Virus record (IMG/VR): IMGVR_UViG_3300023109_000019
Source: an uncultured virus (IMG/VR IMGVR_UViG_3300023109_000019)
Taxonomy: Duplodnaviria > Heunggongvirae > Uroviricota > Caudoviricetes
Direction: 5' to 3' (one strand)
Length of the DNA: 20,000 nt
Shown: piece by piece, positions 4,407-19,986 of the stretch
Numbering within the stretch: the first letter of the stretch is position 1
Layout of the letters: every line of letters begins with the position of its first letter
The notes under the pieces: generated by a model
Told to the model about the DNA's origin: nothing
The model's database searches: none
Seen by the model: only the letters and a program-made list of their open reading frames with translations
Made by a program: the position numbers and the translations under genes

Positions 4407-6335
4407 ATGGCAGAAATAAGTAGAGATACACAAGCAATTTTAGATCGTCTCAAACGAGAGGGATCCCTTACGCGTAATGGCGGTGACGGAAAGAACTCTT
4501 TAAAGACGGTTAAAATAAACCTCGAGAAATTTGGTGTACTCTTTCAAGGTATACAAAACGAGCTTGCTAATTTAAATAAAACGTTTGGCCAAATGCTAAA
4601 CGCAAATCCTAATACGTTCACTGGGCCATTACCTCAAGGCGCACAAGCAGTAGCCCAAACAACATTAGAACCAATTCCAGTTCAATTTGATGCAGAACAA
4701 TTACGAGCATTAGGTCTTGACGAAGAAACGATTGAGTTACAAAAGGAAGCTGCTAAATTAAACATAGCAAATAATTTAGAAGATGAAAAGTTAAGACAAG
4801 TAACTGAGGCAAAAAGAAAAGAAGAAGAGGAAGATAAAAAGAAAAAAGAGCGAGCCGCTGAAGCAAAAAATTACCTTAAAGAAAATACTATTACAGGGCA
4901 GGTACTTACAAATCCATTAAGCTTCTTTACTAAACTATTAAAAGGTGCTGCAATTGCGTTTGTTGGATTTAACGTCGTTAGAGGTATAGTAGATCAATGG
5001 ACAGACGGTAAATTTACTAAGTTTATCGAAGAAATAGATTATGAAGCAATCGGAGATGGTATAAAATCATTTTCCAGCTTCCTTGGAGATACTCCATGGG
5101 CTACATTTACCAAAGCGCTGATTGCATGGACGGCAATTGATTTTGGTATACCGCTTGCTCTTAATGTAACTGGTGAAGCCATACGAACAAGCATGTTGGC
5201 CAAGATGCTAAATAAAGGCGTAATGACTGGAGTTGAGGGTTCTAAAGGATTCTTGTCTACTGTTACTAGCTTAAGAGGAGTAGCCCTCACCGCGGTTGGT
5301 ATCGGTGTTGCTATGATTGGCAGTAAGATTGCTGATGCTATAAGAGCAGAAGTTTCAGGCATGACACCAGATCAAATTGCCAATGAAAAGTTAACCTTAG
5401 ACGCAGGCGATGCTGTTGATGTAGGCTCTATGGCCTTGGCCGGTGCGACAATAGGCTTTATGTTTGGTCCTAAAGGCGCGATGGTTGGAGCAATATTAGG
5501 ATTTGCGTTTGGTGTAGGTAAAAAGGCATATGACTATATTAAGGCCTCTTCAGAAGAAAAGATTAGCTTTGATGAAATGGGCGAAGACTTGGCAAGGACT
5601 AATGCAAAAACTGCGCAAATAATGTTACAAGAACATGCAGATGGTACAAGAGAGTTAGATGCTGAACAAATAGAAGCTTTACAAGAACAAGCCAAAGGAC
5701 CATCTCAAGAATTGTTAAACGCGACCAATAATGAGATTGGAAATCAGCGTGCCAAGTTGAACAAACAGATAGATTTTATTAACATGGAAAAAGGCGATCA
5801 GGTGATAATGGGTTTTGATGCTAGCCCAGACGGAGGGCTTGTTCCACGGTATGGCAAAAAGATTACTGACGCCAGTAAAATTGCTGAGCGGGAAGCCGAT
5901 ATCGCAGCTAGATTAAAAGAAAAACAAGATGAGTTAGATCGTGTTAACTTGTTAGTAGCAGAAAGAATTGAAAAGGGTTTTGGCACTCAAGAACAAATGA
6001 CCAAGCAAGTAACTAAAGGATTCGTCGAAGCGCTGAAGTTTGGAATATTTGGTACTAGTTCTGATATGCTTGAGTATAGAGAAGAACAAGCTGAAAATCA
6101 GCGCCTTTCTTTAATAGATTTTTTCACAAGATCAACCGAAGATGATTATTTAAACGACAAGCAAGTAACAGGAATGATGAAATTAGTTGAAGATGGAGCA
6201 ATGACTAAAGGACAAATGATTACTATTATTAAAAACGGAGATGTTAATCAGTATGTAGATGCTTCAGATAAATCAAGTACAGTTAACAAAAGAACTCTAT
6301 TCACAGGCGGCGATACGGCGCTGATGCCTAATTAA
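4407..6335 (+). CDS. Tail tape-measure / baseplate hub protein (gp29-like), 642 aa
   Basis: Long, apparently helical, Ala/Gly-rich protein with coiled-coil stretches and hydrophobic GxxxG segments (GAMVGAILGFAFGVG); follows gp26/gp51; size similar to T4 gp29. Confidence 0.65.
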   Translation: MAEISRDTQAILDRLKREGSLTRNGGDGKNSLKTVKINLEKFGVLFQGIQNELANLNKTFGQMLNANPNTFTGPLPQGAQAVAQTTLEPIPVQFDAEQLRALGLDEETIELQKEAAKLNIANNLEDEKLRQVTEAKRKEEEEDKKKKERAAEAKNYLKENTITGQVLTNPLSFFTKLLKGAAIAFVGFNVVRGIVDQWTDGKFTKFIEEIDYEAIGDGIKSFSSFLGDTPWATFTKALIAWTAIDFGIPLALNVTGEAIRTSMLAKMLNKGVMTGVEGSKGFLSTVTSLRGVALTAVGIGVAMIGSKIADAIRAEVSGMTPDQIANEKLTLDAGDAVDVGSMALAGATIGFMFGPKGAMVGAILGFAFGVGKKAYDYIKASSEEKISFDEMGEDLARTNAKTAQIMLQEHADGTRELDAEQIEALQEQAKGPSQELLNATNNEIGNQRAKLNKQIDFINMEKGDQVIMGFDASPDGGLVPRYGKKITDASKIAEREADIAARLKEKQDELDRVNLLVAERIEKGFGTQEQMTKQVTKGFVEALKFGIFGTSSDMLEYREEQAENQRLSLIDFFTRSTEDDYLNDKQVTGMMKLVEDGAMTKGQMITIIKNGDVNQYVDASDKSSTVNKRTLFTGGDTALMPN

Positions 6336-6407: not shown

Positions 6408-6917
6408 TTAGCCTTTCAAATAAGCAAGTACTTTCTCAGGCGTTGTTTCACTGTATGGATCTGTTCCACAGTCGTCTTCCATTCCGTCTTCGGTAAACAT
6501 TCTCTCAACAGTACTATCGTCTACGACCATAGCATATCTCCAAGATCTTTTACCAAAACCAAGATTGTCTTTTGCGACTAACATATCCATTCCTGCTGTA
6601 AATTCGCAAGAACCATCAGGAATCAATTTAACATTCTTAACTCTCAAATCTTCAGCCCATGCATTCATTACAAATGTATCATTACATGCAATACAGTATA
6701 CTTCATCAATTCCTGCCTCAACCATTTGGTCATACAATACATCAAATCCTGGGACTTGATTATTAGAACACGTTGGTGTAAAGGCTCCGGGTAGTGAAAA
6801 TACTACAACTCTTTTTCCTTTAAAGTAATCGTCAGTTGTAGGGTAGGTCCAATCGAACTCACCGCTTTCTACGTTTCTGCTTCTTACTTTAAACGTTACG
6901 TTAGGGACTTGTTTCAT
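6408..6917 (-). CDS. Peroxiredoxin (Prx5/Redoxin family)
   Basis: VVVFSLPGAFTPTCS active site; NDTFVMNAW, DGSCEFT and LGFGKRSWRYAMVV motifs. Confidence 0.95.
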   Translation of the reverse strand: MKQVPNVTFKVRSRNVESGEFDWTYPTTDDYFKGKRVVVFSLPGAFTPTCSNNQVPGFDVLYDQMVEAGIDEVYCIACNDTFVMNAWAEDLRVKNVKLIPDGSCEFTAGMDMLVAKDNLGFGKRSWRYAMVVDDSTVERMFTEDGMEDDCGTDPYSETTPEKVLAYLKG

Positions 6918-6972: not shown

Positions 6973-7425
6973 TTAACTTTTTAAGAACTCTTTCTCATTG
7001 TTAATCTTAATTTTACGTGCCTTCTTTGCCTCAGGAATTATTCGTTCCAATGAAACAGTTAAAAGACCGTTTACGAAGCTGGCATCAATAACTTCAATAT
7101 CGTCAGCAAGAGTAAAACTTCTTGTGAACTTTTTGAAGGAAATACCACGGTGAACGTAATCGCCACCGCCATTAAAATAATCACCTGCTTCATCCCATGT
7201 GGAACGAACAGTTAATACATCTTCTTTTACTTCGATTTCTACATCGTTAATATCAAGACCTGCTAAAGCAAGATCAATAAAGAACTTTTCGCCTTTCGTG
7301 GTTCGGATATTATAAGGCGGGAAGCCTTGTGATCGATGTTCTTGGGGGAACTCTACCAATCTGTCAAAGACTCTATCAAAGCCTACGGCAAAAGGGTGAA
7401 GTTGATTTATATTTAATCCAGTCAT
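6973..7425 (-). CDS. hsp20: Small heat-shock protein (Hsp20/IbpA-like)
   Basis: VGFDRVFD, FPPYNI, LALAG, YVHRGISFKKFTRSFTLAD and NGLLTVSLERIIPE alpha-crystallin-domain motifs; SD AGGAG. Confidence 0.95.
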   Translation of the reverse strand: MTGLNINQLHPFAVGFDRVFDRLVEFPQEHRSQGFPPYNIRTTKGEKFFIDLALAGLDINDVEIEVKEDVLTVRSTWDEAGDYFNGGGDYVHRGISFKKFTRSFTLADDIEVIDASFVNGLLTVSLERIIPEAKKARKIKINNEKEFLKS

Positions 7426-7917: not shown

Positions 7918-8412
7918 TTATCTACCAGTTGAACCAATACCACCTTTACGATCCGTCTTGGTTCCAGGCTTCTTCTTTACTTCTTTAATGTCTTGTTGTG
8001 TAACGCTTGCTAATCTACATTGTGCTAATCTGTCGCCGTCGTGAACATGCGCCACGGTATCTGACACATTGTGTACAATAATATGCGTTTCGTCGACATA
8101 ATCAGAATCAATTATACCGACACTGTTAACTAATGTCAATCCCATCTTTGTTGCTACACTTGAACGAATATACATTTCCATTACGTGATTTACCGGAATG
8201 TCAAATATAAGTCCTGTGGGAATAAGTACTCTTGTACCTGGTGTAATGGCCAAGCCATTCTTTTTCACTATTACATCTACTTCCTTATTGAAAGGAGTAT
8301 AAGACCTAACACGTTCACCTACAGTTAAACATGCCTTAATATCAAAGCATGCAGAACCAATGGTTGCGTATTCCGGGAGTGTTGCGTTATCACGTGTTTT
8401 GTAAACATTCAT
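7918..8412 (-). CDS. dut: Trimeric dUTPase
   Basis: All five motifs present: GSACFDI, RSS, GIIDSDY, DRLAQ, RKGGIGSTG. Confidence 0.95.
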   Translation of the reverse strand: MNVYKTRDNATLPEYATIGSACFDIKACLTVGERVRSYTPFNKEVDVIVKKNGLAITPGTRVLIPTGLIFDIPVNHVMEMYIRSSVATKMGLTLVNSVGIIDSDYVDETHIIVHNVSDTVAHVHDGDRLAQCRLASVTQQDIKEVKKKPGTKTDRKGGIGSTGR

Positions 8413-8466: not shown

Positions 8467-8868
8467 TTATTTTTTACCAATATTATACTTGACTGTCAGA
8501 TCCCAATCACTCTTTTCTTTAAATGAAATGATTTTAATTTGATTTAGAGAAGCAACCGGATCTTTCGTTTTTGAAGGATCGACGATCTTAACAAGTTCCC
8601 ATTCTTCCAATAAGTTCACAATCGTATTACGACGTGATATATCTTCTTCTGTTAACGTGTTATGCTTTCCGTCTAAAATAAACAATTCTTTAAAATGTAG
8701 TATTGAGTACCTACCCTGTTTGTGTAGGATATGACAAGACTGATATAACTTTTTTTCCTTGCGGCTTGAGATGCCAATTCGAGTCAATGTTTCTTTTACC
8801 TTAAGGAAAGAATCCTGCGTGGGCAATTCAACTTCGACACCGACTCCTTTGAAAATATCTGTGTCCAT
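8467..8868 (-). CDS. regA: Translational repressor RegA
   Basis: DSFLKVKETLTRIGISSRKEKKLYQSCHILHKQGRYSILHFKELFILDG signature; follows gp62. Confidence 0.97.
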   Translation of the reverse strand: MDTDIFKGVGVEVELPTQDSFLKVKETLTRIGISSRKEKKLYQSCHILHKQGRYSILHFKELFILDGKHNTLTEEDISRRNTIVNLLEEWELVKIVDPSKTKDPVASLNQIKIISFKEKSDWDLTVKYNIGKK

Positions 8869-8928
8869 GATTTATATTCACCTGTTAATTATTATAGTTA
8901 GTGGCAATGGTATTATACCATATCAGAT

Positions 8929-8936
8929 TATTTATA
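8929..8936 (-). promoter_or_regulatory. T4-type late promoter (TATAAATA) upstream of regA
   Basis: Exact motif in the gp62-regA intergenic gap, sense orientation. Confidence 0.65.
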
Positions 8937-8947
8937 ATAATCATAAC

Positions 8948-9343
8948 TTAGCCACCTTCATTAACTTTATCATGGATAGTTTGGAGCTGTTCTTTATTCA
9001 ATACTTTAAGATATTGTTTGGCAACAGTTCGGTTACATTGATATACTTGTTGGATAACATCTAGGTTATTGTTCTTATCGGCCTTAGGCCATTTAGAGAA
9101 CCTCTTACGCTTGCGAAGTACAGAACGATAATAATCAAACTGTGCTCCATCAAACAAACCATGACGCATGTTCATTTCGTTTGCATGTAAGATAGTGTCC
9201 TCAAAATTTGTAAAGCCACGGTTCACTACATAAGGCGTATACATCTTTTCAGTGTGTTCAGGTATATCGCTATTGCGAATTAAATCTTCCTTAGAAAAGC
9301 TTGCAGCGTTCATAAAATCAAAGGGTGTTAGATCTTTCATCAA
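8948..9343 (-). CDS. gp62: Clamp loader small subunit gp62 (start at 9343 or 9340)
   Basis: YTPYVVNRGF...DTILHANEMN...QFDYY...RKRKRFSKW; gp45-gp44-gp62-regA synteny. Confidence 0.92.
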   Translation of the reverse strand: MMKDLTPFDFMNAASFSKEDLIRNSDIPEHTEKMYTPYVVNRGFTNFEDTILHANEMNMRHGLFDGAQFDYYRSVLRKRKRFSKWPKADKNNNLDVIQQVYQCNRTVAKQYLKVLNKEQLQTIHDKVNEGG

Positions 9344-9503
9344 TCAGCTCCTCGTATTCTTTTACCATAACGTCGAAGCGAGAACCGCACTTATCACAAA
9401 GAGTAAGTTTAGTTTTGCCTTCTTCAGTATTCATTTCAACTGTAAATGATTTCTTTTTGGATGTCTTGGTACCACAGTTAAAACATTCAAGTTTTCCAAT
9501 CAT
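9318..9503 (-). CDS. Small zinc-ribbon-like hypothetical protein (CxxC...CxxC)
   Basis: CFNC and CDKC; start overlaps the gp44 stop (TAATG); fills the gap between gp44 and gp62. Confidence 0.7.
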   Translation of the reverse strand: MIGKLECFNCGTKTSKKKSFTVEMNTEEGKTKLTLCDKCGSRFDVMVKEYEELIDERSNTL

Positions 9504-10456
9504 TACGTGTACTCACATTCAATCATAACTTCAGTTAAGAACGCAACCATATTAATTTCCTGGTCAGCAACCAATCCTGACTTATACATATAATCAGCAA
9601 GAGTAACAATAAAGCCTGCTTGTGATTGTAGTGTTACCTTATCAGAACACATATCATAGATACGACGAAACATTTCATTCATATCTTGATCTGAGTTCTT
9701 GGCAACCCATTTGCGCATTTCAGTAAATTGCTTTGCTTTGAGTAAACGAAATACATCATCAATAGATTCTTGTTTTAAATTAACAAAGATACCTTCATCA
9801 ATTTTACCAGAAGCTGCGTATGATTGTAGTTCAGTTAATACTCTACGGAAATCAGGGAAGTGTTTCTCAATTACTTTAGCAACAACTTTAGTATCGTATT
9901 CGACTTCTTCTTGGTCAAGTATTGCCTTAACTCTTTTGAAGAACTCCATAGCCATTTGTGGACGGTCAGCTGTATCAATAGTAAAGTCTACTTCTGATAA
10001 CCTTGAACGTAATGGACTGATAATACGATTCTTGAAATTACAAGTAAAGATAAAGCCACAGTTTGAACTATACTCTTCAATAAAGTTACGTAATGCCGGT
10101 TGGACATTAGCTGCGTTCAAATAATCTGCTTCATCGAAGATTACATACTTACGACCTGTACCTGTTAGAGATACTGCGGAAGCGAATGTTGAGATATCGT
10201 ATCGGAGGGTATCAATATTAACGTTAAGAGAACCATTCTTTACGATATAATCGCAACCGAGTTCTTCAAGCATGGCTTTGGCAATTGTAGTTTTACCTAC
10301 ACCTGGACCACCTGTTAATAATAGATTTGGAACACTGCCGTCTGATACGAACTTACGGAATGTTTCTTTTGTCTTGTTTGGTAGAATAGTATCATCAACG
10401 ATTTGTGGACGGTACTTCTCAACCCATAAGACTTCGTTTGATTTTGCATCAATCAT
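9503..10456 (-). CDS. gp44: Clamp loader large subunit gp44 (AAA+)
   Basis: LWVEKYRP, Walker A GGPGVGKTT, Walker B VIFDEAD, PLRSRL and FPDFRR motifs. Confidence 0.97.
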   Translation of the reverse strand: MIDAKSNEVLWVEKYRPQIVDDTILPNKTKETFRKFVSDGSVPNLLLTGGPGVGKTTIAKAMLEELGCDYIVKNGSLNVNIDTLRYDISTFASAVSLTGTGRKYVIFDEADYLNAANVQPALRNFIEEYSSNCGFIFTCNFKNRIISPLRSRLSEVDFTIDTADRPQMAMEFFKRVKAILDQEEVEYDTKVVAKVIEKHFPDFRRVLTELQSYAASGKIDEGIFVNLKQESIDDVFRLLKAKQFTEMRKWVAKNSDQDMNEMFRRIYDMCSDKVTLQSQAGFIVTLADYMYKSGLVADQEINMVAFLTEVMIECEYT

Positions 10457-10487
10457 AATTCACCATAAACATAATATAAAAAAATTT

Positions 10488-10522
10488 GAGAAAACGCGAG
10501 GGTGTTTCCACCCTCACTTCTC
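10488..10522 (-). terminator. Stem-loop with GAAA tetraloop upstream of gp44; possible terminator, attenuator or processing site
   Basis: GAGGGTG-GAAA-CACCCTC (10515-10498), extendable by GAGAA/TTCTC and followed by a U-rich run. Confidence 0.5.
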
Positions 10523-10539
10523 GAGAAATGAGTTATTGT

Positions 10540-10830
10540 TTAACCAACAACTTTATCAGCTAACTCGCCTTGGGCGGGCGCTGAAACATCAATGGCGGCA
10601 TCCTGTTCACCAATCGCTCGCGCGTCTGGTTGCTGAGGTCCTTTTTGACGTAGGAATGCTTCGAGTTTATTTCTTAGCGTTCCGACACCGGCAAGTTCTT
10701 GCCCTTGGAATCCACCACGTTGTGAGACTATGTCAATAATCTGCAACACAGTAGATAAATCTCCAAGATTGATTACCACTTCTTGTTCTTGACCTTCTTG
10801 GCCAAAATTACCTTGTACTGGTTCATTCAT
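10540..10830 (-). CDS. Hypothetical protein (96 aa) between gp45 and gp44
   Basis: SD AAGG; helical core DLSTVLQIIDIVSQRGGFQGQELAGVGTLRNKL; fills the operon gap. Confidence 0.8.
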   Translation of the reverse strand: MNEPVQGNFGQEGQEQEVVINLGDLSTVLQIIDIVSQRGGFQGQELAGVGTLRNKLEAFLRQKGPQQPDARAIGEQDAAIDVSAPAQGELADKVVG

Positions 10831-10835
10831 AATGT

Positions 10836-11498
10836 TTACCTTTTGTTATAAGTCGACTTTGAATCTATCGCTACGTAATACGTAACACCTTTTCCTTTAA
10901 ATTCTGAGATACCTTTTGAACAAAGAGTAACCTCATAATCTAATGGCATTAATTTCAAGTTATCAGTTTTAATGATAATTTGAAAATCATCAACAGCTTC
11001 ACCAATTTCGATACCAAAGTCATCTGCACCGTTGTTGGAACTGTCGATCGCTTTCAGATAACATTTGCCGCCTTCGCCTACAAATGCAATCTCTGAAAAT
11101 TGTAATACCCCTGCTGCCTTCAATACTGAAGACAAATCTCCGTCAGTGACCGATACCGTTACATCAGCAGAAGGAATAGTAATATCCTTTTCTGGTGGAG
11201 TATGGATCATCGAGAGATCAGCAAACACGTACTTAGTTCTGCGCTTACCTTCCGATATAATAAAGTATTTATCAAAAAACTCCACATCCGGATCATTGTA
11301 CAGAGATAAAATTGATAAAAATCTTGAAAGATCGTAAACACACGCATCAGAAGGAATTTCATCTGGTATGTCAGCGATCGCAATCAATGTTTTCTCTGGA
11401 GTTATAGTCTTAATAACATTACCACTGGCCAATAAGATTGACTTATTGATAGCAGTAAAACTTTTTAAGACCGTCAAGGTTTCGTTAGAAAATTTCAT
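10836..11498 (-). CDS. gp45: Sliding clamp gp45
   Basis: MKFSNETLTVLKSFTAINKSI, VYDLSRFLSILSL and NLKLMPLDYEV...YYVAID motifs; synteny. Confidence 0.95.
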   Translation of the reverse strand: MKFSNETLTVLKSFTAINKSILLASGNVIKTITPEKTLIAIADIPDEIPSDACVYDLSRFLSILSLYNDPDVEFFDKYFIISEGKRRTKYVFADLSMIHTPPEKDITIPSADVTVSVTDGDLSSVLKAAGVLQFSEIAFVGEGGKCYLKAIDSSNNGADDFGIEIGEAVDDFQIIIKTDNLKLMPLDYEVTLCSKGISEFKGKGVTYYVAIDSKSTYNKR

Positions 11499-11534
11499 TA
11501 TATAAATTTCTCCATTTAGTTAATATTGTTGTAT

Positions 11535-11563
11535 ATTATATACCAATTACTTGGCTTTGTCAA
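11535..11563 (-). promoter_or_regulatory. Sigma70-type early promoter for the gp45 operon
   Basis: TTGACA(11563-11558)-N17-TATAAT(11540-11535). Confidence 0.9.
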
Positions 11564-12416
11564 TAGGATTGTAAGATTTCTTATTAGATTTGTTATCAGC
11601 AGTTGCTGTAACACCTAATTGGCCTAGACTTCCCATATCACCTTTAAAGATATATGACCCAACATGGTTAAGTTTCATCCAAGGACACATCCATACTGAA
11701 AGGTCAGCTTTGCGAGCCATCTTACAGAAGAAGTAATCTTCAGACAAGTACCTTCTTGTTTCTGGGTCGATGACACAGTCGAAGAAAGCATGAATATCTC
11801 GAGTACCGTCAAATTGTTCTGTTCTAACGTGATCTGGTTTATATGCAAATTCAGGATAGGTGTCACGATATTTCTCTAACGCCTCTCTTGTAATTAACAT
11901 AAACCCAGTACCGCCTTCTGCAACTTCAACAGGTTCCGAGAGTTTAAATGATTTCGTTCCGCTAACCGGATTGAAAACAAAATCTGATGTAAATTTTTCT
12001 AAGTCAAATGGATTATCTTTACCGTTGCCTTGTTGAGCAGCGATAGAAACCTTTTCCCATGCAATTGTCTTTTTAGGATATGGTCCACAGACGATATCAT
12101 ATTTTTCTGGATCTGAAACTTGTAACGCAAGTAATGCTAACGCGTCTCTTGGATCAAATCCAATATCAGCATCAATAAACAATAAGTGCGTGCAGTCTGA
12201 TCTTAGGAACTCATCTACAATATAATTCCTTGCTCTTTGAATTAGACTCTCATTGAATAGAAAGTAGTACTTCAGTGGAATTTTATGAGTAGATGCTAAC
12301 ATGCTCAGATCATTAGTTGACTTGGTATATAAACCAGTACATTGACCACCATACATTGGTGTGCCAACGAACAACCGTTGTTTTTGTAAATCTTCTGTCT
12401 TAACTTCTAGCTTCAT
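11547..12416 (-). CDS. GT-A fold glycosyltransferase (GT2-like)
   Basis: VGTPMYGG, ESLIQRARN, HLLFIDADI (DxD), GTGFMLI and YLSEDYFFC motifs. Confidence 0.8.
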   Translation of the reverse strand: MKLEVKTEDLQKQRLFVGTPMYGGQCTGLYTKSTNDLSMLASTHKIPLKYYFLFNESLIQRARNYIVDEFLRSDCTHLLFIDADIGFDPRDALALLALQVSDPEKYDIVCGPYPKKTIAWEKVSIAAQQGNGKDNPFDLEKFTSDFVFNPVSGTKSFKLSEPVEVAEGGTGFMLITREALEKYRDTYPEFAYKPDHVRTEQFDGTRDIHAFFDCVIDPETRRYLSEDYFFCKMARKADLSVWMCPWMKLNHVGSYIFKGDMGSLGQLGVTATADNKSNKKSYNPIDKAK

Positions 12417-13051
12417 ACTGTAATTTGCTCCATATCATTTTCTGCTCTGGTGATTGACTGTAATCTTAATACATCAGCCAATATGTCCCATGCAGAATCG
12501 TGTGCTTTAAAAACAGAATCCCACTTTTCTTCGTTTGCACAAGGAGGGAATCCGTTCTTCTTTAAACCGAAATCAAACTTTGCATCAATGAATGTTCTTG
12601 TATCTCTAACTGTCCAATGCTTTAGTTTGTTTTGTAGATGACCGATTTTATTTTGAGACTTAAATAGTCTTTCTAATATTACTGGGTCGAATGAATTAGA
12701 TCTTGACCACCAATAATCAATCTTTGGTCCGTCAATTAAAAAGTCAGTAAACTGTTTCACAAAGTCTTCAACCGATAGGTCTGAACTTTTAGGAGCAATA
12801 TTCTTTCTTACTTCTGAATCTTGTTTTGACCAAAAGTCGAGAGTGCCTTTATCGACTACCCAACCATAGTTCTTTACTTGTTCTGCTACATCCAATTTAA
12901 ATTTCTTTGCCTTGAATACATCACTCAGATTGTAAGGATCATTTGATGTAAACTTGTCCCACTGAAATACCATTACAGATACATCAATGACTGCACAGTT
13001 ATGAACATCTTGTCCCATTGTCTCGAAGTCGATAATTAAATCGTTTCTCAT
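12413..13051 (-). CDS. dexA: 3'-5' exonuclease DexA-like (DEDDh)
   Basis: IIDFETMG, RKNIAP, SFDPVIL, RDTRT and AHDSAWD closely parallel T4 DexA. Confidence 0.88.
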   Translation of the reverse strand: MRNDLIIDFETMGQDVHNCAVIDVSVMVFQWDKFTSNDPYNLSDVFKAKKFKLDVAEQVKNYGWVVDKGTLDFWSKQDSEVRKNIAPKSSDLSVEDFVKQFTDFLIDGPKIDYWWSRSNSFDPVILERLFKSQNKIGHLQNKLKHWTVRDTRTFIDAKFDFGLKKNGFPPCANEEKWDSVFKAHDSAWDILADVLRLQSITRAENDMEQITV

Positions 13052-13076
13052 ATGTTTACCTTTAATTTAATATACT

Positions 13077-13105
13077 ATTATAACAAACTTTACTAGTCAT
13101 GTCAA
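13077..13105 (-). promoter_or_regulatory. Sigma70-type early promoter for dexA-GT2
   Basis: TTGACA(13105-13100)-N17-TATAAT(13082-13077). Confidence 0.9.
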
Positions 13106-13110
13106 TAGTT

Positions 13111-14337
13111 TTATCCAAAGAATTCAGATAAATTTGGAGTTGTATCTACGCCGTTAGGATCAAGCTCCATTAATTGTTTATGATTGTTCTGTCTCAAATA
13201 AGTAGTATCTGATAAATCTAACTTGCCTGTTAGAAACTTGCCAATCTCTGTATGTAAATCCCTTGATGTTGGTACAGGAACGTTTTGAGCAATATGATTC
13301 ATTTTCTTTAAACCATGTAACAACTCAAAGTCTTCAGGAAAGCCCATTAGGTGTAATGCTTCTCTAATCGTTAAGGATCGTTCTTCTGTTGGATGCATCG
13401 TGTCAACCATATTACGACCAATCACTGCATTCATATATTCACCAAAGACATGTACTGAACCATCCCATACACCTTTGCCATCAGCAAACTTCATAATTGC
13501 GTGGTCGGAATATTTAATACCTTTCTCATTGCCTGTCTTATGGAACCATTCGTTAGCTTCTTTCATCCAACCTTTCTTACAAACGTAATTCAGAGTTGTC
13601 TTAACATTCTCTTCAACCATCAACTCTCTAACTTCTCTGTTAGTCTTTGTCTTGATGAAATTGTAATACGGTTCGTCAGGTACATGTTTATTAATAATCA
13701 AATCCTGATGTAACGCATCAACTGGAATCTCTTGAAGGTATTCTTTAAAATCTTTTCTATCTTTATTATACCAGTTCATTACAGGAGCGGACTCTGACTT
13801 CCAACCAATCGCGAAAGTCCTGTCGCGTCCCTGTGGAACTCCGTGGAATCTCGTCGATGTTTTATATAGGGACAAAGAATAACCTCTCTCAGCGCAAATT
13901 TCGTACAGTCGATTCGCTACAGGACGTCCTTTATTTGTAAACAATGCAGGAGCATTCTCAACGATGACTACCTTTGCACCAAGTTTATCAATACCATCTT
14001 GAAAGACCATATACATAAATTCGTTCTTAGCACAACCTGCACCTTTACTCTCTCCGGTTGTTCCTGTATTCAATTGAGATAATGCAGCACAAGGTGGAGT
14101 ACCAGAAACAACATCAACCTGTTTGATTTGACCAGGCTCTGCTTCATCAAGTTTAATATAAGGAATATCACGTCCTTTTGTATTTTGTTGATAGTTTACA
14201 TAATGACTATCGTTATCCTCAAATCCACCATAAGAGTAGATTGCTTCAGGTGGTTTACCAAACGCCTTTTCTGCGCCTAGCATTTGTCCACCGATAAGTG
14301 GAATAAGTGGAGCCCATGTTATTTCTTTCTTGTTCAT
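13111..14337 (-). CDS. C5-cytosine DNA methyltransferase-fold protein with atypical SAM-binding motifs
   Basis: Motif IV GTPPC, VI VENA, VIII GVPQGRDRTF and IX RSLTIREALHLMGFPEDF are present; motif I reads IPLIGG and motif X reads AQNVPV. Confidence 0.85.
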   Translation of the reverse strand: MNKKEITWAPLIPLIGGQMLGAEKAFGKPPEAIYSYGGFEDNDSHYVNYQQNTKGRDIPYIKLDEAEPGQIKQVDVVSGTPPCAALSQLNTGTTGESKGAGCAKNEFMYMVFQDGIDKLGAKVVIVENAPALFTNKGRPVANRLYEICAERGYSLSLYKTSTRFHGVPQGRDRTFAIGWKSESAPVMNWYNKDRKDFKEYLQEIPVDALHQDLIINKHVPDEPYYNFIKTKTNREVRELMVEENVKTTLNYVCKKGWMKEANEWFHKTGNEKGIKYSDHAIMKFADGKGVWDGSVHVFGEYMNAVIGRNMVDTMHPTEERSLTIREALHLMGFPEDFELLHGLKKMNHIAQNVPVPTSRDLHTEIGKFLTGKLDLSDTTYLRQNNHKQLMELDPNGVDTTPNLSEFFG

Positions 14338-15575
14338 CCGAAAAAGTCCTCAAGTGTTGCAGCTACTTTCTTATCAAATTCCATTACATTGGGGGCAACA
14401 TAATCATTATCAATCGCTGTCATAATTTTATTGTTTAAGAATGTTCCATCGTAATATTCAGGTTTGCATAATAGTTTACGCAGTCCTGTAATTACCGATT
14501 CATATTCCTGTTCGTTATTTAATAACCTATCCATCCTTTCTTTAAATTCAGCAGGAGTCTTTGGTCTTAAAAATTCTGGTATTGGCAAATGCCCTTGTTC
14601 ATCATAAGATGGATGCAAGAACGGTATCACACCAGCATGTACCATTTCAATATACTTTGAAGTTACCCAACCTTTTGCGATTGGAATAATAAAAGTAAAT
14701 TTAACATTGTTCATTTTAGCCATTACATCATCAAGATGAATAGATCCTTTGAACCTTGCGTCTGTTTCGGTATTAGGATGTTCCCATTTACCGTAGATCT
14801 CAACATCGTCATGTTCATCTAATACCCAGTCCTTTAATAAATTATATCTTGAAGGCTTTGCTTCATTGAGAATAACCATGAAAGGAACATTACGATTTAA
14901 ATTGAACTGTTCAGTGTGTTGATAGTTAATACAGAAACAAGTTTCCATTCCTGCATATGTTGAAGGCATTGATCTGTCGTAACGATCTTGTTCTTCGTAA
15001 GATTTAATACTACTTACTTTATATTCGTAATCGTATTGACCTAAAGATATATTTGGTAGATTGAATATGTCTCTTGATTGATTCATGACATACCGAGGAT
15101 CGTTTACAATCTCAACATAATCAGGATTCTCTTCGTTAATCCAAATCGCAATTGGTGATGTATAATTCTTTGTCATATCAATCACAGAAGCTTTAAGCGT
15201 ACGATCTTTAACTTGTTCAATTTTACCTGGAATGGTAACAGTACCAACTTGACCAACCATTAAAACAGTATAGTCTAATTTCATTGACCTACTCTTAAAG
15301 TAATCAATTACGTGATTAAAGAATCTATCTTCGTCTTTGTTTTTAATACCTTTCCAAATATCAATTACATTATCAAAGGGAAACAACTCCAATGATTCAG
15401 ACTCATTTAGAGTACTGAAATCAGATCGTCCGATAATGTAAAATGTTTTGTCTGGGTTATTATTTGCGAGTGCAATAAGTACTGTAGACGGCTCGTTGTC
15501 TCCACCAATAGGAGAGAAGCGATTCCGCTTAAACTTGACCGATTTACCGATCTTTCCAAATCCAATGTTTTTCAT
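14334..15575 (-). CDS. GT-B fold glycosyltransferase, T4 beta-glucosyltransferase-like (putative DNA glycosyltransferase)
   Basis: VEIYGKW, VTSKYIEMVHAGVIPFLHPSYD...EFKERMDRL resemble the BGT C-terminal domain; IVNDPR resembles the BGT DPR motif; lies near gp42. Confidence 0.7.
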   Translation of the reverse strand: MKNIGFGKIGKSVKFKRNRFSPIGGDNEPSTVLIALANNNPDKTFYIIGRSDFSTLNESESLELFPFDNVIDIWKGIKNKDEDRFFNHVIDYFKSRSMKLDYTVLMVGQVGTVTIPGKIEQVKDRTLKASVIDMTKNYTSPIAIWINEENPDYVEIVNDPRYVMNQSRDIFNLPNISLGQYDYEYKVSSIKSYEEQDRYDRSMPSTYAGMETCFCINYQHTEQFNLNRNVPFMVILNEAKPSRYNLLKDWVLDEHDDVEIYGKWEHPNTETDARFKGSIHLDDVMAKMNNVKFTFIIPIAKGWVTSKYIEMVHAGVIPFLHPSYDEQGHLPIPEFLRPKTPAEFKERMDRLLNNEQEYESVITGLRKLLCKPEYYDGTFLNNKIMTAIDNDYVAPNVMEFDKKVAATLEDFFG

Positions 15576-15602
15576 AATATAAAGTTTGCCGTTCTGTTAA
15601 AT

Positions 15603-16037
15603 TTATTTATCCGAATTGACCACACGTTGTCTGAGCTCTGACGAACTGAAAGAATGCCTTCTACGATTATAATGAACAGGACATAAACCTTTTCCAGTAT
15701 GCTCAACATCTTTGTATTCTTCACCAACAATTCTAATATCAGGATTGATAGTTAAAATCATATCAACCAATTCTTGTTCAGTTGAGAAAGGTATTACCTC
15801 GTCTACATATTTACAAGAAGATAACTGTATGTATCTTTCAAATGGAGTCTGAACTGGTGCGTTCTTTGCATCAGGACGATCCACGGTTGGGTCAATCAAT
15901 AATCCAACAATTAAATAATCACACAACGTCTTTGCTTCTTGTAGCATTACAATATGACCTGCATGAAACAGATCAAACGTTGAACATGTAAATCCGACCT
16001 TACAATCTGCCGGTAATTTTTTCCTATCTAGAAACAT
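15603..16037 (-). CDS. Cytidylyltransferase, TagD/glycerol-3-phosphate cytidylyltransferase-like (HxGH family)
   Basis: TFDLFHAGH, DYLIVGL, KYVDEVIP and RRHSFSSSELR motifs. Confidence 0.9.
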   Translation of the reverse strand: MFLDRKKLPADCKVGFTCSTFDLFHAGHIVMLQEAKTLCDYLIVGLLIDPTVDRPDAKNAPVQTPFERYIQLSSCKYVDEVIPFSTEQELVDMILTINPDIRIVGEEYKDVEHTGKGLCPVHYNRRRHSFSSSELRQRVVNSDK

Positions 16038-16953
16038 TTTCTTCCCTCAAAATTTCTTTAACTCGTTTAGCATACACCGTATAGAGTGGTGTTTTATCAG
16101 TTGGTAGATAATGTATATATGCAGGGAAGGTTTTAAAATTTAACACTGCGTCGAGTTTTAGAACCGTAGTCCAAATACGTACGTCACTACCAAACCTACT
16201 TACCTCAAATCCATTCTCTGATAACCATCTATAATAAATTGCATATATGTTTTGTTCTATACACCAAAACTTTCCACCCATAGATCGGTTATTACCTGGA
16301 GTTCCATACTTTGGTATAACAGAACCACCATAACCTTTTTTGTTTTTATACTTGTGTACACCTTCCATAATAAGAACATACATATCTTTACAAGCTGCTC
16401 TTTTAAAGAACTCAAGATAATGATCGTTTCTTGTATGTACAACCTGACCAGAATTCATACTAAAATAAGGTTTGGTTCTCATTGTAGTAATATCAACCTT
16501 ATCCTTATAAATTGGATCAAGTACTACTTCTACAAACTTACCCATAATACCTAATGCAGATTCGTTATAGAATACATAAGGTTCAAAGAAATAGTGGTCA
16601 ACAGGCTTGAGTAATAACGTATCGTCATCAATCATCATTGCTCTGTTGATGTTTAATATTTCATGTACATAAGGAAAGACCAACCATTTGATTGCCACTC
16701 CATATACATCAAGTATTCGTAACAACCACTCTTCATCAAAGAAATGTTTTACTTTAGCAATCACATCAGTTGCATAGTGAATTGTTATCTTATCTGATAT
16801 ACTTTCTACGTTATATGTACAATTCCGATCATCTAAGATAACATGCAAATTCATATATGTATCTTCGTCGTATACATTATACATCTCAAGAAGGTTTTCA
16901 ATCCTTGAGATTTTATTGCTTACTATAAATATATTATTAGCCTGCATATTCAA
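16024..16953 (-). CDS. Putative GT-A fold nucleotide-diphospho-X transferase (GT8-like)
   Basis: AMMIDDDTLLLKP (DxD), MNSGQV, CIEQ and YIHY features seen in GT8-like enzymes; overlaps both neighbours. Confidence 0.6.
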   Translation of the reverse strand: MNMQANNIFIVSNKISRIENLLEMYNVYDEDTYMNLHVILDDRNCTYNVESISDKITIHYATDVIAKVKHFFDEEWLLRILDVYGVAIKWLVFPYVHEILNINRAMMIDDDTLLLKPVDHYFFEPYVFYNESALGIMGKFVEVVLDPIYKDKVDITTMRTKPYFSMNSGQVVHTRNDHYLEFFKRAACKDMYVLIMEGVHKYKNKKGYGGSVIPKYGTPGNNRSMGGKFWCIEQNIYAIYYRWLSENGFEVSRFGSDVRIWTTVLKLDAVLNFKTFPAYIHYLPTDKTPLYTVYAKRVKEILREENVSR

Positions 16954-17977
16954 CCATATCCATTACGTCGTCAACTAACTGAATGATAAAATCTTTGTCT
17001 CCATGGTACTTATATACACGAATAATTTCAGCAGCAACAAGCGTAAGTAAGTCATACTTGTCTATATACTTATTATAAGCCAACAGTGTATCAATAGCAA
17101 GATCTTGTTCTGAAGAACTGTAACGGTTAATCATTAAACTTGCGATAAACTTTGCTATGTCAAGTTCACGACAACCAAATACGTTAGGGATAGGATCAAT
17201 TAAGAACAATTTGTCTTCATTAAACAGCATGTTCTTAACACCAAAATCTCCATGACAATATCCGTATTCTAATTCAATTGTTGCTAATTTCTCAATCACA
17301 TCATTAAATGGTTCAAGGTCTGCCAATTGAACATGACTTACTATTCTTGCGATGTAATCATCAAAGGTTAGAAACTTAGTTTGTTTAATAGAATCAAAAG
17401 CATCAAGAGATTCTTGAATCATTGCCAATGCTTTATAAGGACTGTCTGTAAAATAGTTTGGATCGTTTTCAATATAATCCATTGTAAGTGTATTACCTAC
17501 AACTCTATGAATCGTTGGAGTGTTTACAATATCACCAGTATCTTTGAACCACTTTGCTGCCTCATGGGCATTTCTTGCTGTCTTATGTACTACCTTACCA
17601 TCAGTATAGATATCAGAACCTGAGAGACCACCTTCGAGTTCTCTTATATCTGTTTCTATAAAATCTTCAGGAGTAATACCTTTGTCGTCAACATAGTATG
17701 CTGCAAGTGGTTTATCAAAAGATAGAGCATGATATTTTACATGATGTTTGTTTAACCATTCTTCGATCTGAGGACCGTACTTTTCTGATGCTTCAACTCT
17801 ACTCCTACAGGAAATAGAACCACGAGCTGTAAAGATATCAATAATCCAACCAGCTTCGTATAGTTTATTACACTTTTCTATCAGACCAAGATTAGGCGTT
17901 GCGTTTGCCCAATCTCGATCTGATGTGTATGCGAGTGTATCGTCAAAGTCAAGTACTATGCGTTTATGTAGAGACAT
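16937..17977 (-). CDS. HAD-family phosphatase fused to an APH/choline-kinase-like kinase
   Basis: N-terminal DFDDT, FTARG and KP..YYVDDK (HAD motifs); C-terminal GGLSGS, HGDFGVKN and LIDP (kinase motifs). Confidence 0.85.
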   Translation of the reverse strand: MSLHKRIVLDFDDTLAYTSDRDWANATPNLGLIEKCNKLYEAGWIIDIFTARGSISCRSRVEASEKYGPQIEEWLNKHHVKYHALSFDKPLAAYYVDDKGITPEDFIETDIRELEGGLSGSDIYTDGKVVHKTARNAHEAAKWFKDTGDIVNTPTIHRVVGNTLTMDYIENDPNYFTDSPYKALAMIQESLDAFDSIKQTKFLTFDDYIARIVSHVQLADLEPFNDVIEKLATIELEYGYCHGDFGVKNMLFNEDKLFLIDPIPNVFGCRELDIAKFIASLMINRYSSSEQDLAIDTLLAYNKYIDKYDLLTLVAAEIIRVYKYHGDKDFIIQLVDDVMDMVEYAG

Positions 17978-17978
17978 A

Positions 17979-18182
17979 TTAATTACTTCTATTTAGCATA
18001 GATCTTGTTAAACCACCGAAGAGGTAGCAGAAGTAAATAAAGAATGGAGTTGCTAATGCAAGTCTGATTTGGTCAGATGTCATATTAACAAGTTCTAATA
18101 AAGAAATAGCTGCGTATACAGAAAATGCAATTCCTAGTATTACTGCCAATCCCATTCCAAGGTCTTTCAATTTTTCTTTCAT
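17979..18182 (-). CDS. Small two-TM membrane protein (67 aa; likely start 18182 rather than 18326)
   Basis: MKEKLKDLGMGLAVILGIAFSVYAAI...; SD AAAGGA; the start lies downstream of the 18210-18238 promoter. Confidence 0.75.
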   Translation of the reverse strand: MKEKLKDLGMGLAVILGIAFSVYAAISLLELVNMTSDQIRLALATPFFIYFCYLFGGLTRSMLNRSN

Positions 18183-18209
18183 AATATATCCTTTTAAAAT
18201 AATAATTCT

Positions 18210-18238
18210 ATTATAACAAATTATCAAGTGGTTGTCAA
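18210..18238 (-). promoter_or_regulatory. Sigma70-type early promoter for the kinase-GT-CTase-BGT-MTase operon
   Basis: TTGACA(18238-18233)-N17-TATAAT(18215-18210); the -35 box overlaps the dCMP deaminase TGA stop. Confidence 0.9.
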
Positions 18239-18681
18239 TAGTAAATGTTACTAATTTCAACATTAGCTTCTGAAAACATGTTTCTTGATTTTTCAAATGA
18301 CTCTGACCATTTCTCTGGTACATCACTTGTTGCCATTACAATTCTATTTATGCCAACCTGGATAATTCCCTTTGCACAATCAGAGCAAACTGGTAATCCC
18401 CAAACATATAGAGTTGCATCTTTTAACGAAATACCATTAAAGGTAGCATTATATATGCAATTCATTTCGGCATGTACGACCAAACTATATTTAAGCTCTC
18501 GATTTTCATAACGTTCTGGTGTATCGTCAATTCCTTTTGGGAATCCATTATAACCAGTTGCTAGGATACGACGGTCAGAGTTAACTGCCACCGCACCTAT
18601 TTGTTTTGAAGGATCTTTACTCCATGTAGAGATCTCTCGAGCAACGTTCATAAAACGTTTATCCCATTTAGGATCCTGCAT
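18235..18681 (-). CDS. cd: dCMP deaminase
   Basis: SKDPSKQIGA, TGYNGFP, HAEMN and PVCSDC zinc deaminase motifs. Confidence 0.93.
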   Translation of the reverse strand: MQDPKWDKRFMNVAREISTWSKDPSKQIGAVAVNSDRRILATGYNGFPKGIDDTPERYENRELKYSLVVHAEMNCIYNATFNGISLKDATLYVWGLPVCSDCAKGIIQVGINRIVMATSDVPEKWSESFEKSRNMFSEANVEISNIYY

Positions 18682-19336
18682 TCACTAATGCCTCAACTTG
18701 GTCGAAGTGTCTTTCGTAAACATGAAAGTTAGTAGCAGTCCAAATAAGATCACCGACTTCAACTTCAAGATCATAAGCAAGTTGTCCTTGAACAAACTTT
18801 GCCCAAGCATAATCATTGTTATAACCAAAGACTGCATCGTTAGATCTCATTACATAATGGGAAATAAGTTTGCCATCACGAATCATAAACGTATTACTAA
18901 AGGTACACATAAAGTCATTCATACCGTCGCGGTTGAAATCAGTATGCATACTTGGTCGATTATAAATCATTGAAGCACGTCGGCTGTTTGGATTATTTCT
19001 CAACTCTCGAAGTACATGTTTATACTGATGACCATTCTCTTCAGAGTAAATACACCAACCATAATTAGAATTGATCTTACCTTCGTCAGAAGATATGTCT
19101 TTCCAAATCTGTGGTGTATCACCAGGAATATCATCAACATATAATGATTCAGACATGTACCAATCTAGTTCACGTTCAATATACTTATATGCAGGTTTAC
19201 GAATTACGTAGTCTTCATCGGCAAGAAACGATTCACCAAAGACTTCGATAGTTTTTGCACCAGTACGATCAACAGTAAAATCTTCAAGAAGATACTTGTT
19301 CATAATGATGTTACGAATGTCTTGGACTTGTTTCAT
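18668..19336 (-). CDS. gp42: dCMP hydroxymethylase gp42 (thymidylate synthase superfamily)
   Basis: DRTGAKTIE, RELDWY, DIPGDTPQIW, INSNYGW, DFMCT (catalytic Cys), MRSND..FG..NDYAW (cytosine-specifying Asp) and HVY.RHF; collinear with T4 gp42. Confidence 0.92.
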   Translation of the reverse strand: MKQVQDIRNIIMNKYLLEDFTVDRTGAKTIEVFGESFLADEDYVIRKPAYKYIERELDWYMSESLYVDDIPGDTPQIWKDISSDEGKINSNYGWCIYSEENGHQYKHVLRELRNNPNSRRASMIYNRPSMHTDFNRDGMNDFMCTFSNTFMIRDGKLISHYVMRSNDAVFGYNNDYAWAKFVQGQLAYDLEVEVGDLIWTATNFHVYERHFDQVEALVNAGS

Positions 19337-19590
19337 TAGATAGATTCCATTAACGCTTCAATATCAGATACTTCTGCAATTAGATCAGAAACATTTTGAT
19401 TATGGAAAGCTCTTGCGGTTTTCCTTAGGATTGATTTTGGGATCTGAACTTCGTCAGCCAAAGCATTGATTGCTTCTTTCTGAAAATCACGTTCGCCTTC
19501 CATTCTTGTAAAAGAATTACTCATTTCTTCCATGCAACCACGGATTCGTTTTTTGTCTTCGTCACTTGACGGTAATATCACATTGCTCAT
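19336..19590 (-). CDS. dsbA: Phage dsDNA-binding protein (T4 DsbA/GapR-like)
   Basis: 84-aa helical protein EEMSNSFTRMEGERDFQKEAI...IPKSILRK.ARAFH.Q; TAATG coupling on both sides. Confidence 0.65.
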   Translation of the reverse strand: MSNVILPSSDEDKKRIRGCMEEMSNSFTRMEGERDFQKEAINALADEVQIPKSILRKTARAFHNQNVSDLIAEVSDIEALMESI

Positions 19591-19934
19591 TATTTAGTAC
19601 TCCTGTTAAATACATCTTTAGTTGAATCCTGACCTGTAATACCTTGACGACAGTAAGAGACAAAGAAACTTGAATAGTTAATTAAATCTTTTGCTGAATC
19701 TTCAAGGGACTCAAAGTTAGGATCGTAATCATCTGACTGCATTGCTTCCATTACTGATTTCATACGTAGCATTTTTGCATGCATAATATCATGAATGGTT
19801 GTAATTCCGTTAGGATAGTAGTCAGCTTGTTGAACAGTCGAGTTTGGATTTTGATAATCTCTCGACTTTTTCAATTGAAGGTCAACGCACTCTTGTAGTA
19901 CATCGACCGAAACTGGGTTGGTTGGTTTTGTCAT
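19590..19934 (-). CDS. Nucleotide modification-associated domain 1 (DUF1599/Nmad1)-like protein
   Basis: KKSRDY...K..R...ESLEDSAKDLINY pattern; lies next to gp42. Confidence 0.7.
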   Translation of the reverse strand: MTKPTNPVSVDVLQECVDLQLKKSRDYQNPNSTVQQADYYPNGITTIHDIMHAKMLRMKSVMEAMQSDDYDPNFESLEDSAKDLINYSSFFVSYCRQGITGQDSTKDVFNRSTK

Positions 19935-19957: not shown

Positions 19958-19986
19958 ATTATATCAAAGATTCTTGATAATGTCAA
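19958..19986 (-). promoter_or_regulatory. Sigma70-type early promoter for Nmad1-dsbA-gp42-cd
   Basis: TTGACA(19986-19981)-N17-TATAAT(19963-19958). Confidence 0.9.

Follow-up and report, generated by a model that had tools for sequence, protein, structure and literature searches.

What would an enzyme with the fold of a cytosine-C5 methyltransferase do in a phage whose own nucleotide metabolism should leave the C5 position of cytosine already occupied? The question is posed by a stretch of 20,000 nucleotides from an uncultured virus of the Caudoviricetes (IMG/VR record IMGVR_UViG_3300023109_000019), called here the window, which is a piece of a T4-like marine myovirus. One of its open reading frames (ORFs), the methylase-like gene at positions 13111..14337, was singled out in an earlier note as a possible repurposed base-flipping enzyme that uses a co-substrate other than that of an ordinary orphan methylase. 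We regard it as evenly balanced whether its product is a working, clamp-tethered enzyme of a cytosine hypermodification pathway with a chemistry other than plain methylation by S-adenosylmethionine (SAM), and the protein probably performs an undescribed step of phage DNA modification. The gene and its motifs lie as follows.

13111..14337, minus strand: ORF with the C5-cytosine-methyltransferase fold, 408 aa, ATG start (PF00145, alignment and AlphaFold2 (AF2) model)
14287..14304, minus strand: motif I, IPLIGG, residues 12-17; canonical Phe replaced by Ile and first Gly by Leu
14089..14094, minus strand: Pro82-Cys83 with the catalytic nucleophile, within T80-P-P-C83; the next residue is Ala, against the canonical Gln
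13948..13959, minus strand: motif VI, ENAP, residues 127-130; Glu invariant, Val replaced by Ala
13819..13833, minus strand: motif VIII, QGRDR, residues 169-173; both Arg invariant
13276..13287, minus strand: motif X, QNVP, residues 351-354; Gly replaced by Gln, Asn kept

The protein matches Pfam PF00145 with an expectation value (E) of 6.2e-27 and 95.3 bits (curated cut-off 22), residues 15-366 covering profile positions 10-323 of 324. A two-lobe C5-methyltransferase (C5-MTase) fold is supported both by the AF2 model (90-row alignment, mean pLDDT 95.3, pTM 0.93) and by Foldseek, where the best solved matches are M.HaeIII, DIM2, M.HhaI and ZMET2 (E about 1e-14 to 1e-13; best 1dct, with E 1.5e-14 and TM 0.66 on the target). 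The motif readings of the earlier note were borne out in the translation: the cytosine-activating motifs are intact (T80-P-P-C83, E127-N-A-P130 and Q169-G-R-D-R173), motif I reads I12-P13-L14-I15-G16-G17, motif X reads Q351-N-V-P354, and the motif II region, A32-I-Y-S-Y-G-G38, holds no obvious acid. An hhalign comparison with three canonical phage C5-MTases (probability 99.7%) sets I12 opposite the Phe and L14 opposite the first Gly of FxGxGG, and the motif II Glu of those enzymes faces no conserved acid in the methylase-like family. The motif II acid is unconserved in three alignments, namely columns 37 and 41 of the 137-row set described below, the HaeIII alignment and the hhalign comparison. 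A conserved Asp or Glu does occur at position 43, at least 2 residues downstream, and we read it as the second acid of the canonical ExD, not as the Glu.

The same alterations recur throughout the family. A full scan of 1.84 billion cluster representatives found 1655 representatives at E<=1e-3, of which 294 lie at E<=1e-30. For conservation, 137 rows were aligned (the query and 136 of 150 listed representatives, 14 having been dropped for a length outside 330-480 aa). The altered motif I is held by P13 in 121 rows, L14 in 129, G16 in 131 and G17 in 130, with Ile or Val at position 15; N42 (125), A129 (135) and P130 (132) behave alike, as do Q351 (134), N352 (131), V353 (133) and P354 (132) of motif X. 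Whether IPLIGG and QNVP are conserved, which the earlier note had left to a homologue alignment, is answered in the affirmative by L14, Q351 and P354. Among the catalytic residues, C83 is present in 136 rows, E127, R171 and R173 in all 137, and Q169 in 134. The residue at the position of Gln82 in M.HhaI is Ala in 96 rows, Ser in 35 and Gly in 5. Catalytic and altered residues are near-invariant also in the 90-row alignment. In 22 of 23 sequences from the sampled lineages, including cyanophage S-TIM5, Pseudoalteromonas phage XG4 and the second copy of locus L116, the motifs PLIGG, ND, PC(A/S)xLS, ENAP and QNVP are found; the 23rd (L128) is a fragment in which only PCSGLS, ENAP and HGxPQxRxR remain. 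Five canonical methyltransferase ORFs caught by the genome scan showed FxGxGG, PCQxFS and ENV, as expected of the motif scan.

The family is largely confined to viruses. Its neighbours in the Atlas are 94-100% viral, and a single peptide pattern run over 185,579 species genomes gave 4 signature loci, all on contigs of metagenome-assembled genomes (MAGs); one of these has, 2 kb away, a thymidylate synthase (TS) homologue in which Asp takes the place of Asn177 of E. coli ThyA (an Asp-type, or cytosine-specific, TS homologue). Since both the catalytic and the altered residues are near-invariant family-wide, the motif changes are, as judged from these alignments, the mark of a large, almost virus-only family, not of chance or decay. 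No published description of the family was found in the literature searched, a scope that did not take in Iyer et al. 2013, and the text of the MetaGPA paper (PMC8670742) contains no term for a C5 DNA methylase. Two loci are unusual in structure. In L116, two family members stand in tandem (9962-11182 and 11182-12378), both with full PLIGG, ENAP and QNVP motifs and flanked by three glycosyltransferase genes. On a MAG contig of 3455 bases (L169), one stop-free frame of 580 aa (1051-2793) is similar to two proteins of the window, at E 3.8e-68 to the glycosyltransferase and, starting near residue 49, at E 1e-134 to the methylase-like protein; a gene fusion could account for this, as could a frameshift or a faulty assembly.

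The changed residues cluster on the cofactor side. Of the residues lost here, the Phe serves in class I methyltransferases to hold the adenine of SAM, the first Gly its methionine part and the Glu its ribose. When the family profile is set against M.HaeIII and M.HhaI, the alignment starts only at profile position 39-50, and the motif I/II region no longer resembles that of those enzymes. Compared with M.HaeIII and M.HhaI (PF00145), the family has the same fold and has the Pro-Cys, the motif VI Glu, the motif VIII QxRxR and motif IX in common with them, but it is without the Phe and first Gly of motif I and the conserved Glu of motif II, in PCQ the Gln has given way to Ala or Ser, ENV has become ENAP and GN has become QN, a C-terminal tail of clamp type is present, and the gene stands in an island of 5-hydroxymethylcytosine (5hmC) and sugar genes, not in a restriction-modification system. 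As judged from the motifs, the SAM and methyl side of the pocket is rebuilt in a conserved way and the machinery for base flipping and attack on C6 (Pro-Cys, motif VI Glu and motif VIII Arg) is kept.

Engineered enzymes give an idea of what such changes may do. In M.HhaI, according to excerpts of PMC3526304, residues Gln82, Tyr254 and Asn304 crowd the transferred group, and the Q82A change lowers activity with AdoMet (SAM) about 16-fold and raises activity with an extended analogue. The family naturally carries the Gln82-to-Ala type of change, together with the Val-to-Ala change in motif VI. The engineered M.HhaI Q82A/Y254S/N304A resembles it in the small residue at the Gln82 position, but, as described there, keeps a normal adenosine pocket and uses SAM analogues, whereas in the family the adenosine side is altered and the Asn304 equivalent is kept. 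The atypical chemistry that the earlier note had cited, thiols condensed onto 5hmC and groups added to cytosine, is in print: excerpts of PMC7176277 report coupling of thiols to 5hmC and hydroxymethylation of GCGC sites by C5-MTases. An enzyme of altered cofactor that acts on a 5hmC genome could carry out such SAM-free reactions.

A natural enzyme of changed cofactor is CmoX, a phage C5-carboxymethyltransferase that uses carboxy-SAM and provides a handle for hypermodification (excerpts of PMC12783734; PDB 8yf3). It has the C5-MTase fold and the Pro-Pro-Cys motif IV in common with the family, and its Foldseek match (E 1.6e-12, rank 23) lies at a level similar to that of other C5-MTases. In CmoX, as described, the residues that hold the adenosine (Phe, Glu-Phe and Asp) are kept and Arg stands in place of the motif X Asn; in the family the situation is reversed. 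The genes found with CmoX are those for CmoA and an amide ligase, those found with the family encode TS homologues and glycosyltransferases. Membership in the CmoX group was rejected, the window's protein having TPPC, not SPPC, keeping Asn352 in place of Arg and having lost the residues that CmoX keeps. No CmoA was seen among the window ORFs by Pfam or PHROGs annotation, the whole records of the relatives not having been searched for it.

The premise that C5 is occupied rests on nucleotide genes to the right of the methylase-like gene.

18668-19336, minus strand: dCMP hydroxymethylase of T4 gp42 type, with equivalents of Cys148 and Asp179 present
18235-18681, minus strand: dCMP deaminase

The TS homologue of the window matches T4 gp42 (PDB 1b49) at E 3.2e-69 and thymidylate synthases at 1e-15 or weaker. 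Some TS homologues of T4-like phages make 5-hydroxy-dCMP instead (excerpts of PMC13326640). The window's enzyme is far closer to gp42 than to 9iqu/9iqc (E 1e-15), which may be entries of the 5-hydroxy-dCMP type, and C5 is blocked whether the product is 5-hydroxymethyl- or 5-hydroxy-dCMP. The contention that this genome should lack free C5 positions is plausible: the hydroxymethylase has both the catalytic Cys and the cytosine-selecting Asp, but no dCTPase was found in the window, and complete replacement of cytosine remains a matter of plausibility. A MazG-type PRA-PH ORF occurs in three of five large relatives; the copy in G002 is located upstream of the hydroxymethylase gene at a distance of about 1.8 kb, and the corresponding place in the present phage would be slightly beyond the end of the window. 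A 164-aa protein of the dUTPase/dCTP-deaminase family (7918-8412, minus strand) adjoins regA, and could be a dUTPase or a part of dCTP removal.

Between the dCMP deaminase gene and the methylase-like gene lies a sugar module.

14334..15575, minus strand: putative DNA glycosyltransferase (GT-B-like), 413 aa, ending in TLEDFFG; its stop overlaps the methylase-like start (ATGA)
15603..16037, minus strand: cytidylyltransferase-like nucleotidyltransferase (PF01467), 144 aa, sugar activation
16024..16953, minus strand: 309-aa protein with a DDD motif and without family match, present in only some close relatives
16937..17977, minus strand: fusion of a HAD phosphatase and an APH/RIO-like kinase, 346 aa, sugar phosphate handling

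The neighbour had been called similar to beta-glucosyltransferase (BGT), which was not upheld. The 413-aa glycosyltransferase has only a sub-threshold match to Pfam Glyco_trans_1_2, a GT-B family (E 0.0012, 19.3 bits, cut-off 25), and no match among PDB sequences at E<=1; the BGT assignment by sequence was rejected for want of such a match. Excerpts of the preprint 10.1101/2023.12.21.572611 describe a "contig 53" gene cluster (HAD-APH, cytidylyltransferase and GT-B) that in E. coli gave heptosyl- and di-heptosyl-5hmC. The window has the same three-part kit at the level of domain content, and therefore the product of its sugar module is likely, by analogy, to be heptosylated 5hmC. The 309-aa protein probably is a second glycosyltransferase of GT-A type, offered as a lead, and may add a further sugar; its Atlas neighbours lead to GT8 and nucleotide-sugar transferases. 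A TET-like oxygenase, also considered for it, was rejected in view of that lead and of the lack of any Pfam match even at E<=5.

The methylase-like gene is tied to this module in more than one way. Its start overlaps the stop of the glycosyltransferase gene by the ATGA that the earlier note had reported, which was found in the DNA, and the two genes are translationally coupled. The signals of the operon and the proposed docking elements are listed here.

18210..18238, minus strand: perfect sigma-70-type promoter (12/12), ahead of the sugar, glycosyltransferase and methylase-like operon
13077..13105, minus strand: perfect sigma-70-type promoter (12/12), directly after the methylase-like stop
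19958-19986 and 11535-11563, minus strand: perfect TTGACA-17-TATAAT promoters (12/12)
13114..13134, minus strand: C-terminal tail NLSEFFG of the methylase-like protein, putative sliding-clamp docking peptide
10836..11498, minus strand: gp45 sliding clamp, proposed docking partner (Pfam/PHROGs, co-fold)

Each of the four perfect promoters stands ahead of a gene block, and they look like early promoters of T4 type; promoter-like sites in total number 33 against 39.3 in shuffled sequence, which is not above expectation. Because a promoter follows its stop directly, the methylase-like gene is the last of an early operon.

T4-type polymerases dock on gp45 by their C-terminal tails. Tails of the xLxEFFG type occur in two of the 42 window ORFs of at least 70 aa, and these two are the glycosyltransferase (TLEDFFG) and the methylase-like protein (NLSEFFG). 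The family B polymerases of relatives end similarly (TLEDFFG in G006, TLESFFM in G005 and TLDDFFS in L012), with matching tails on both enzymes, and in loci L090, L098 and L012 the glycosyltransferase and the methylase-like protein end in the polymerase-like tail. Distant lineages have other tails, again common to both enzymes (...KNLF and ...KSLF in L135). Such sharing suggests that the methylase-like enzyme and the glycosyltransferase are both tethered to the clamp. In a co-fold of three gp45 copies with residues 365-408 the score was 0.59, and the best of 3 controls reached 0.00. Of 157 solved complexes 116 pass the mark, only 18 of the 157 with a score of <=0.60; of 215 mismatches 2 pass, both of them at <=0.60. 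Between runs at least 39% of the contacts are shared, and the partner has a pLDDT of at least 37. The outcome is consistent with tethering to the clamp but falls short of proving it.

A shared tail and a fixed place beside the glycosyltransferase gene, with translational coupling, would also be expected of a non-catalytic or regulatory subunit that flips bases, presenting the modified cytosine to the glycosyltransferase or shielding sites. The conservation of Cys83 (136 of 137 rows) and of Glu127, Arg171 and Arg173 in every row goes beyond what binding alone demands, and T4-type glycosyltransferases flip their own substrate. We consider such a subunit improbable. According to the enzymatic proposal, the protein would ride the sliding clamp by its C-terminal tail, would act on freshly copied phage DNA alongside the glycosyltransferase, and would there carry out a reaction other than plain SAM methylation of C5.

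The company kept by the family in many unrelated lineages of phages points the same way. The 127 loci with a full-length member fall into 22 clusters at 70% identity, and an Asp-type TS homologue lies <=7 kb away in 16 of them; in a 17th cluster it is found elsewhere in the record (L161 in G009). Neighbourhoods were compared in 14 lineages, by Pfam annotation of 138 proteins from 12 loci, taken in combination with XG4, the window and S-TIM5. A glycosyltransferase gene stands directly upstream in nine of the 14, often overlapping, and within two genes in 10. The upstream enzyme is the T4-type alpha-glucosyltransferase PF11440 in L139, L141 and L138 and of the window's type in L109 and L144; in L116, PF11440 lies two genes upstream and a Glyco_trans_1_2 transferase directly upstream. 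In the scanned stretch of L106 the TS homologue is accompanied by a nucleotidyltransferase and a HAD protein and no glycosyltransferase is found, and L124 and S-TIM5 have no adjacent glycosyltransferase. The polymerases of the carrier lineages differ, being of family B or, in L138, Pol III alpha, and because of this the link of the family to the glycosyltransferase and TS genes is functional, not just a matter of shared ancestry.

Cultured phages are among the carriers. Pseudoalteromonas phage vB_Psh_XG4 has a member of 50% identity and cyanophage S-TIM5 one of 32% identity (F417_gp080). Three genes from the latter is a gene annotated as "thymidylate synthase" (L082/L158, NC_019516.2 140905-141741) whose product carries Asp where E. 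coli ThyA has Asn177 and is probably a dCMP-modifying enzyme. In structure, the viral protein that matches best is gp301 of Bacillus phage G, ten orders of magnitude ahead of any other (E 6.7e-27, TM 0.74 over the whole length); it has PCSGLS and ENAP in common with the family, but its motifs I, VIII and X are different. Upstream of gp301 and in the same orientation (L168, JN638751.1 212000-228000; L167) come the genes for a HAD phosphatase (gp310), for a glucose-1-phosphate thymidylyltransferase (gp309) and for an "alpha glucosyl transferase" (gp306); about 13 kb from gp301 there is an Asp-type TS homologue, and a normal ThyA is encoded elsewhere in the genome. The same module together with an Asp-type TS homologue suggests that phage G DNA contains a glycosylated modified cytosine.

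Several results weigh against an enzyme of unusual chemistry, and most of them are what would be seen if the protein were an orphan C5-methyltransferase of the ordinary SAM-dependent kind, its SAM site divergent but still working. Such an enzyme would methylate unreplaced cytosines, in a sequence context given by its variable recognition domain, and would thereby provide a second layer of protection against restriction. The pocket is judged to be rebuilt from its sequence only, the PF00145 match is well above its cut-off and the whole fold is conserved. Some SAM-site residues are still in place: the motif X Asn (131 of 137 rows), the last two Gly of motif I, and an Asp or Glu at position 43 (126 of 137); position 64, in motif III, is Asp in 78 and Asp or Asn in 102 of the 137. 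With these residues remaining, the Asp at 64 in part, a shifted or unusual SAM site is possible. Nowhere does the protein vary more than in its target-recognition region (1 of 125 columns at >=80%), which is also the pattern of ordinary methylases with sequence specificity, and the tandem duplicates of L116 look like two specificities. An argument that had been built on a conserved recognition domain was dropped for this reason. The suggestion of a repurposed base-flipping enzyme is therefore kept in a qualified form: family-wide, the SAM-side motifs are altered and the cytosine-activating residues kept, and the hydroxymethylase, the coupling to the glycosyltransferase gene and the Asp-type TS homologues are fitting company, but an unusual SAM site may still be present, given the motif X Asn, the two Gly of motif I and D64.

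What tells against the orphan methyltransferase is that the Phe and first Gly of motif I, the Glu of motif II and the Gln of motif IV are all replaced, and by conserved residues, when the Q82A change alone costs M.HhaI about 16-fold in methyl transfer (PMC3526304), and that the family accompanies enzymes which block C5 before replication. The TET-coupled C5-MTases cut both ways. Excerpts of PMC8256090 describe phage C5-MTases as proven partners of glycosyltransferases in the TET-coupled pathway, and there, as here, a gene of C5-MTase fold adjoins that of a DNA glycosyltransferase. In that pathway 5hmC arises after replication by methylation and TET oxidation, whereas here it would come from the gp42-type enzyme; active TET-coupled C5-MTases are described as keeping the signature motifs, a description that sets the family apart. 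The same paper mentions clades (III-IV) of C5-MTase homologues without detectable methylation. No TET/JBP gene was found in the window, and PF12851 occurs in none of five large relatives, a search in which 14 control genomes were likewise silent. On balance the ordinary methyltransferase seems to us rather unlikely, though the strongest of the alternatives.

Further points against concern the pathway as a whole. Five of the 22 clusters show no Asp-type TS homologue in the DNA examined; one of the records (L142, 26% complete) has only an Asn-type ThyA, with two 2-oxoglutarate-oxygenase genes beside the methylase-like gene. Full replacement of cytosine in the phage is plausible but inferred. The co-fold lends weak support to clamp binding; a solved structure exists in which a polymerase tail peptide is bound to a phage clamp, and the co-fold pass may simply reflect that known complex. 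Phages T4, RB69 and DLP3 resemble the window in having a TS homologue with Asp at N177, a dCMP deaminase, HAD, kinase and nucleotidyltransferase functions for the NDP-sugar, and DNA glycosyltransferases (PMC13326640). They differ in having no gene of C5-MTase fold in the pathway, and the word "methyltransferase" does not occur in the text of that paper. T4, RB69 and DLP3 glycosylate modified cytosine without such an enzyme (PMC13326640), and the methylase-like enzyme would therefore be accessory.

If the protein is nonetheless a hypermodification enzyme, three chemistries may be considered. It could place a one-carbon or hydroxymethyl-type group on the rare cytosines that escape replacement, so that these too become glycosylated, which taken singly is unlikely. 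It could act on 5hmC through a covalent adduct at C6 and swap or strip off the substituent of the exocyclic carbon, a reaction for which SAM-free C5-MTases set an in vitro precedent; we give this possibility no more and no less credence than the first. It could, with about half the probability of either, transfer a bulkier group from a SAM-like or other cofactor. A more sweeping proposal, doubtful as yet but put above the ordinary methyltransferase, is that the protein is the first natural DNA enzyme to use the covalent C5-MTase mechanism beyond alkyl transfer from SAM or carboxy-SAM, riding the clamp behind the replication fork and either hydroxymethylating stray cytosines or exchanging the 5hmC group. 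It would then represent a new cytosine modification or a proofreading step, and a natural counterpart of the "atypical" C5-MTase reactions known from in vitro work.

The covalent mechanism has also a destructive outlet, since C5-MTases deaminate cytosine when SAM is lacking. The protein might in that case be a sensor or destroyer of unmodified cytosine, deaminating stray cytosines to uracil without a cofactor, with excision repair to follow, or attacking host DNA in this way. L139 has an ORF of the uracil-DNA glycosylase (UDG) superfamily between its deaminase and alpha-glucosyltransferase genes, as this idea would have it, but such a neighbour was seen in only one of the 12 loci scanned, the tail for the phage clamp speaks against a host DNA target, and the activity would be mutagenic. 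Of the explanations considered we hold this one the least probable.

Cytosine-replacing phages are abundant in the sea, and the family consists of hundreds of sequence clusters. If a non-methyl chemistry is true, known routes of DNA hypermodification gain an extra step, one that explains how phages reach complete or mixed modification, and the enzyme offers a natural starting point for site-specific labelling of 5hmC or cytosine, for which engineered methyltransferases are now used. Since three cultured phages carry members (vB_Psh_XG4, S-TIM5 and, more distantly, phage G with gp301), the question is directly testable.

The rest of the window conforms to its T4-like character, with the following features besides those given above.

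92-4219: baseplate, tail-tube and head-completion genes (Pfam/PHROGs)
8467-11498: regA, clamp loader gp62/gp44 and sliding clamp gp45 (Pfam/PHROGs)
19590-19934, minus strand: DUF1599-like ORF (weak match)

A megablast of positions 9000-19000 against named phages gave no match. From the right edge, the row of genes on the minus strand runs through the DUF1599-like ORF, a DsbA-like protein, the TS homologue, the dCMP deaminase, the HAD/APH-like fusion, the 309-aa protein, the cytidylyltransferase-like protein, the 413-aa glycosyltransferase-like protein and the methylase-like ORF to a DexA-like exonuclease, a PHROG-1574 protein and gp45. In L012, whose methylase-like protein is 92% identical, a DNA polymerase gene lies immediately upstream of the same row, and therefore the modification island sits between gp43 and gp45. 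The PHROG-1574 protein (289 aa, 11547-12416, minus strand), located between the exonuclease gene and gp45, is strongly conserved in nearly all relatives; it contains a DxD-like stretch, FIDADIGF, and its glycosyltransferase matches are only faint (E 0.04). A 642-aa ORF (4407-6335, plus strand) that follows the baseplate-hub gene is without Pfam or PHROG match. Genes for a peroxiredoxin and an Hsp20 protein are found at 6408-6917 and 6973-7425 on the minus strand. Heat-shock protein and redoxin genes adjoin one clade of TET-coupled C5-MTase clusters in the excerpts of PMC8256090, and the contigs of that clade may come from related marine phages.

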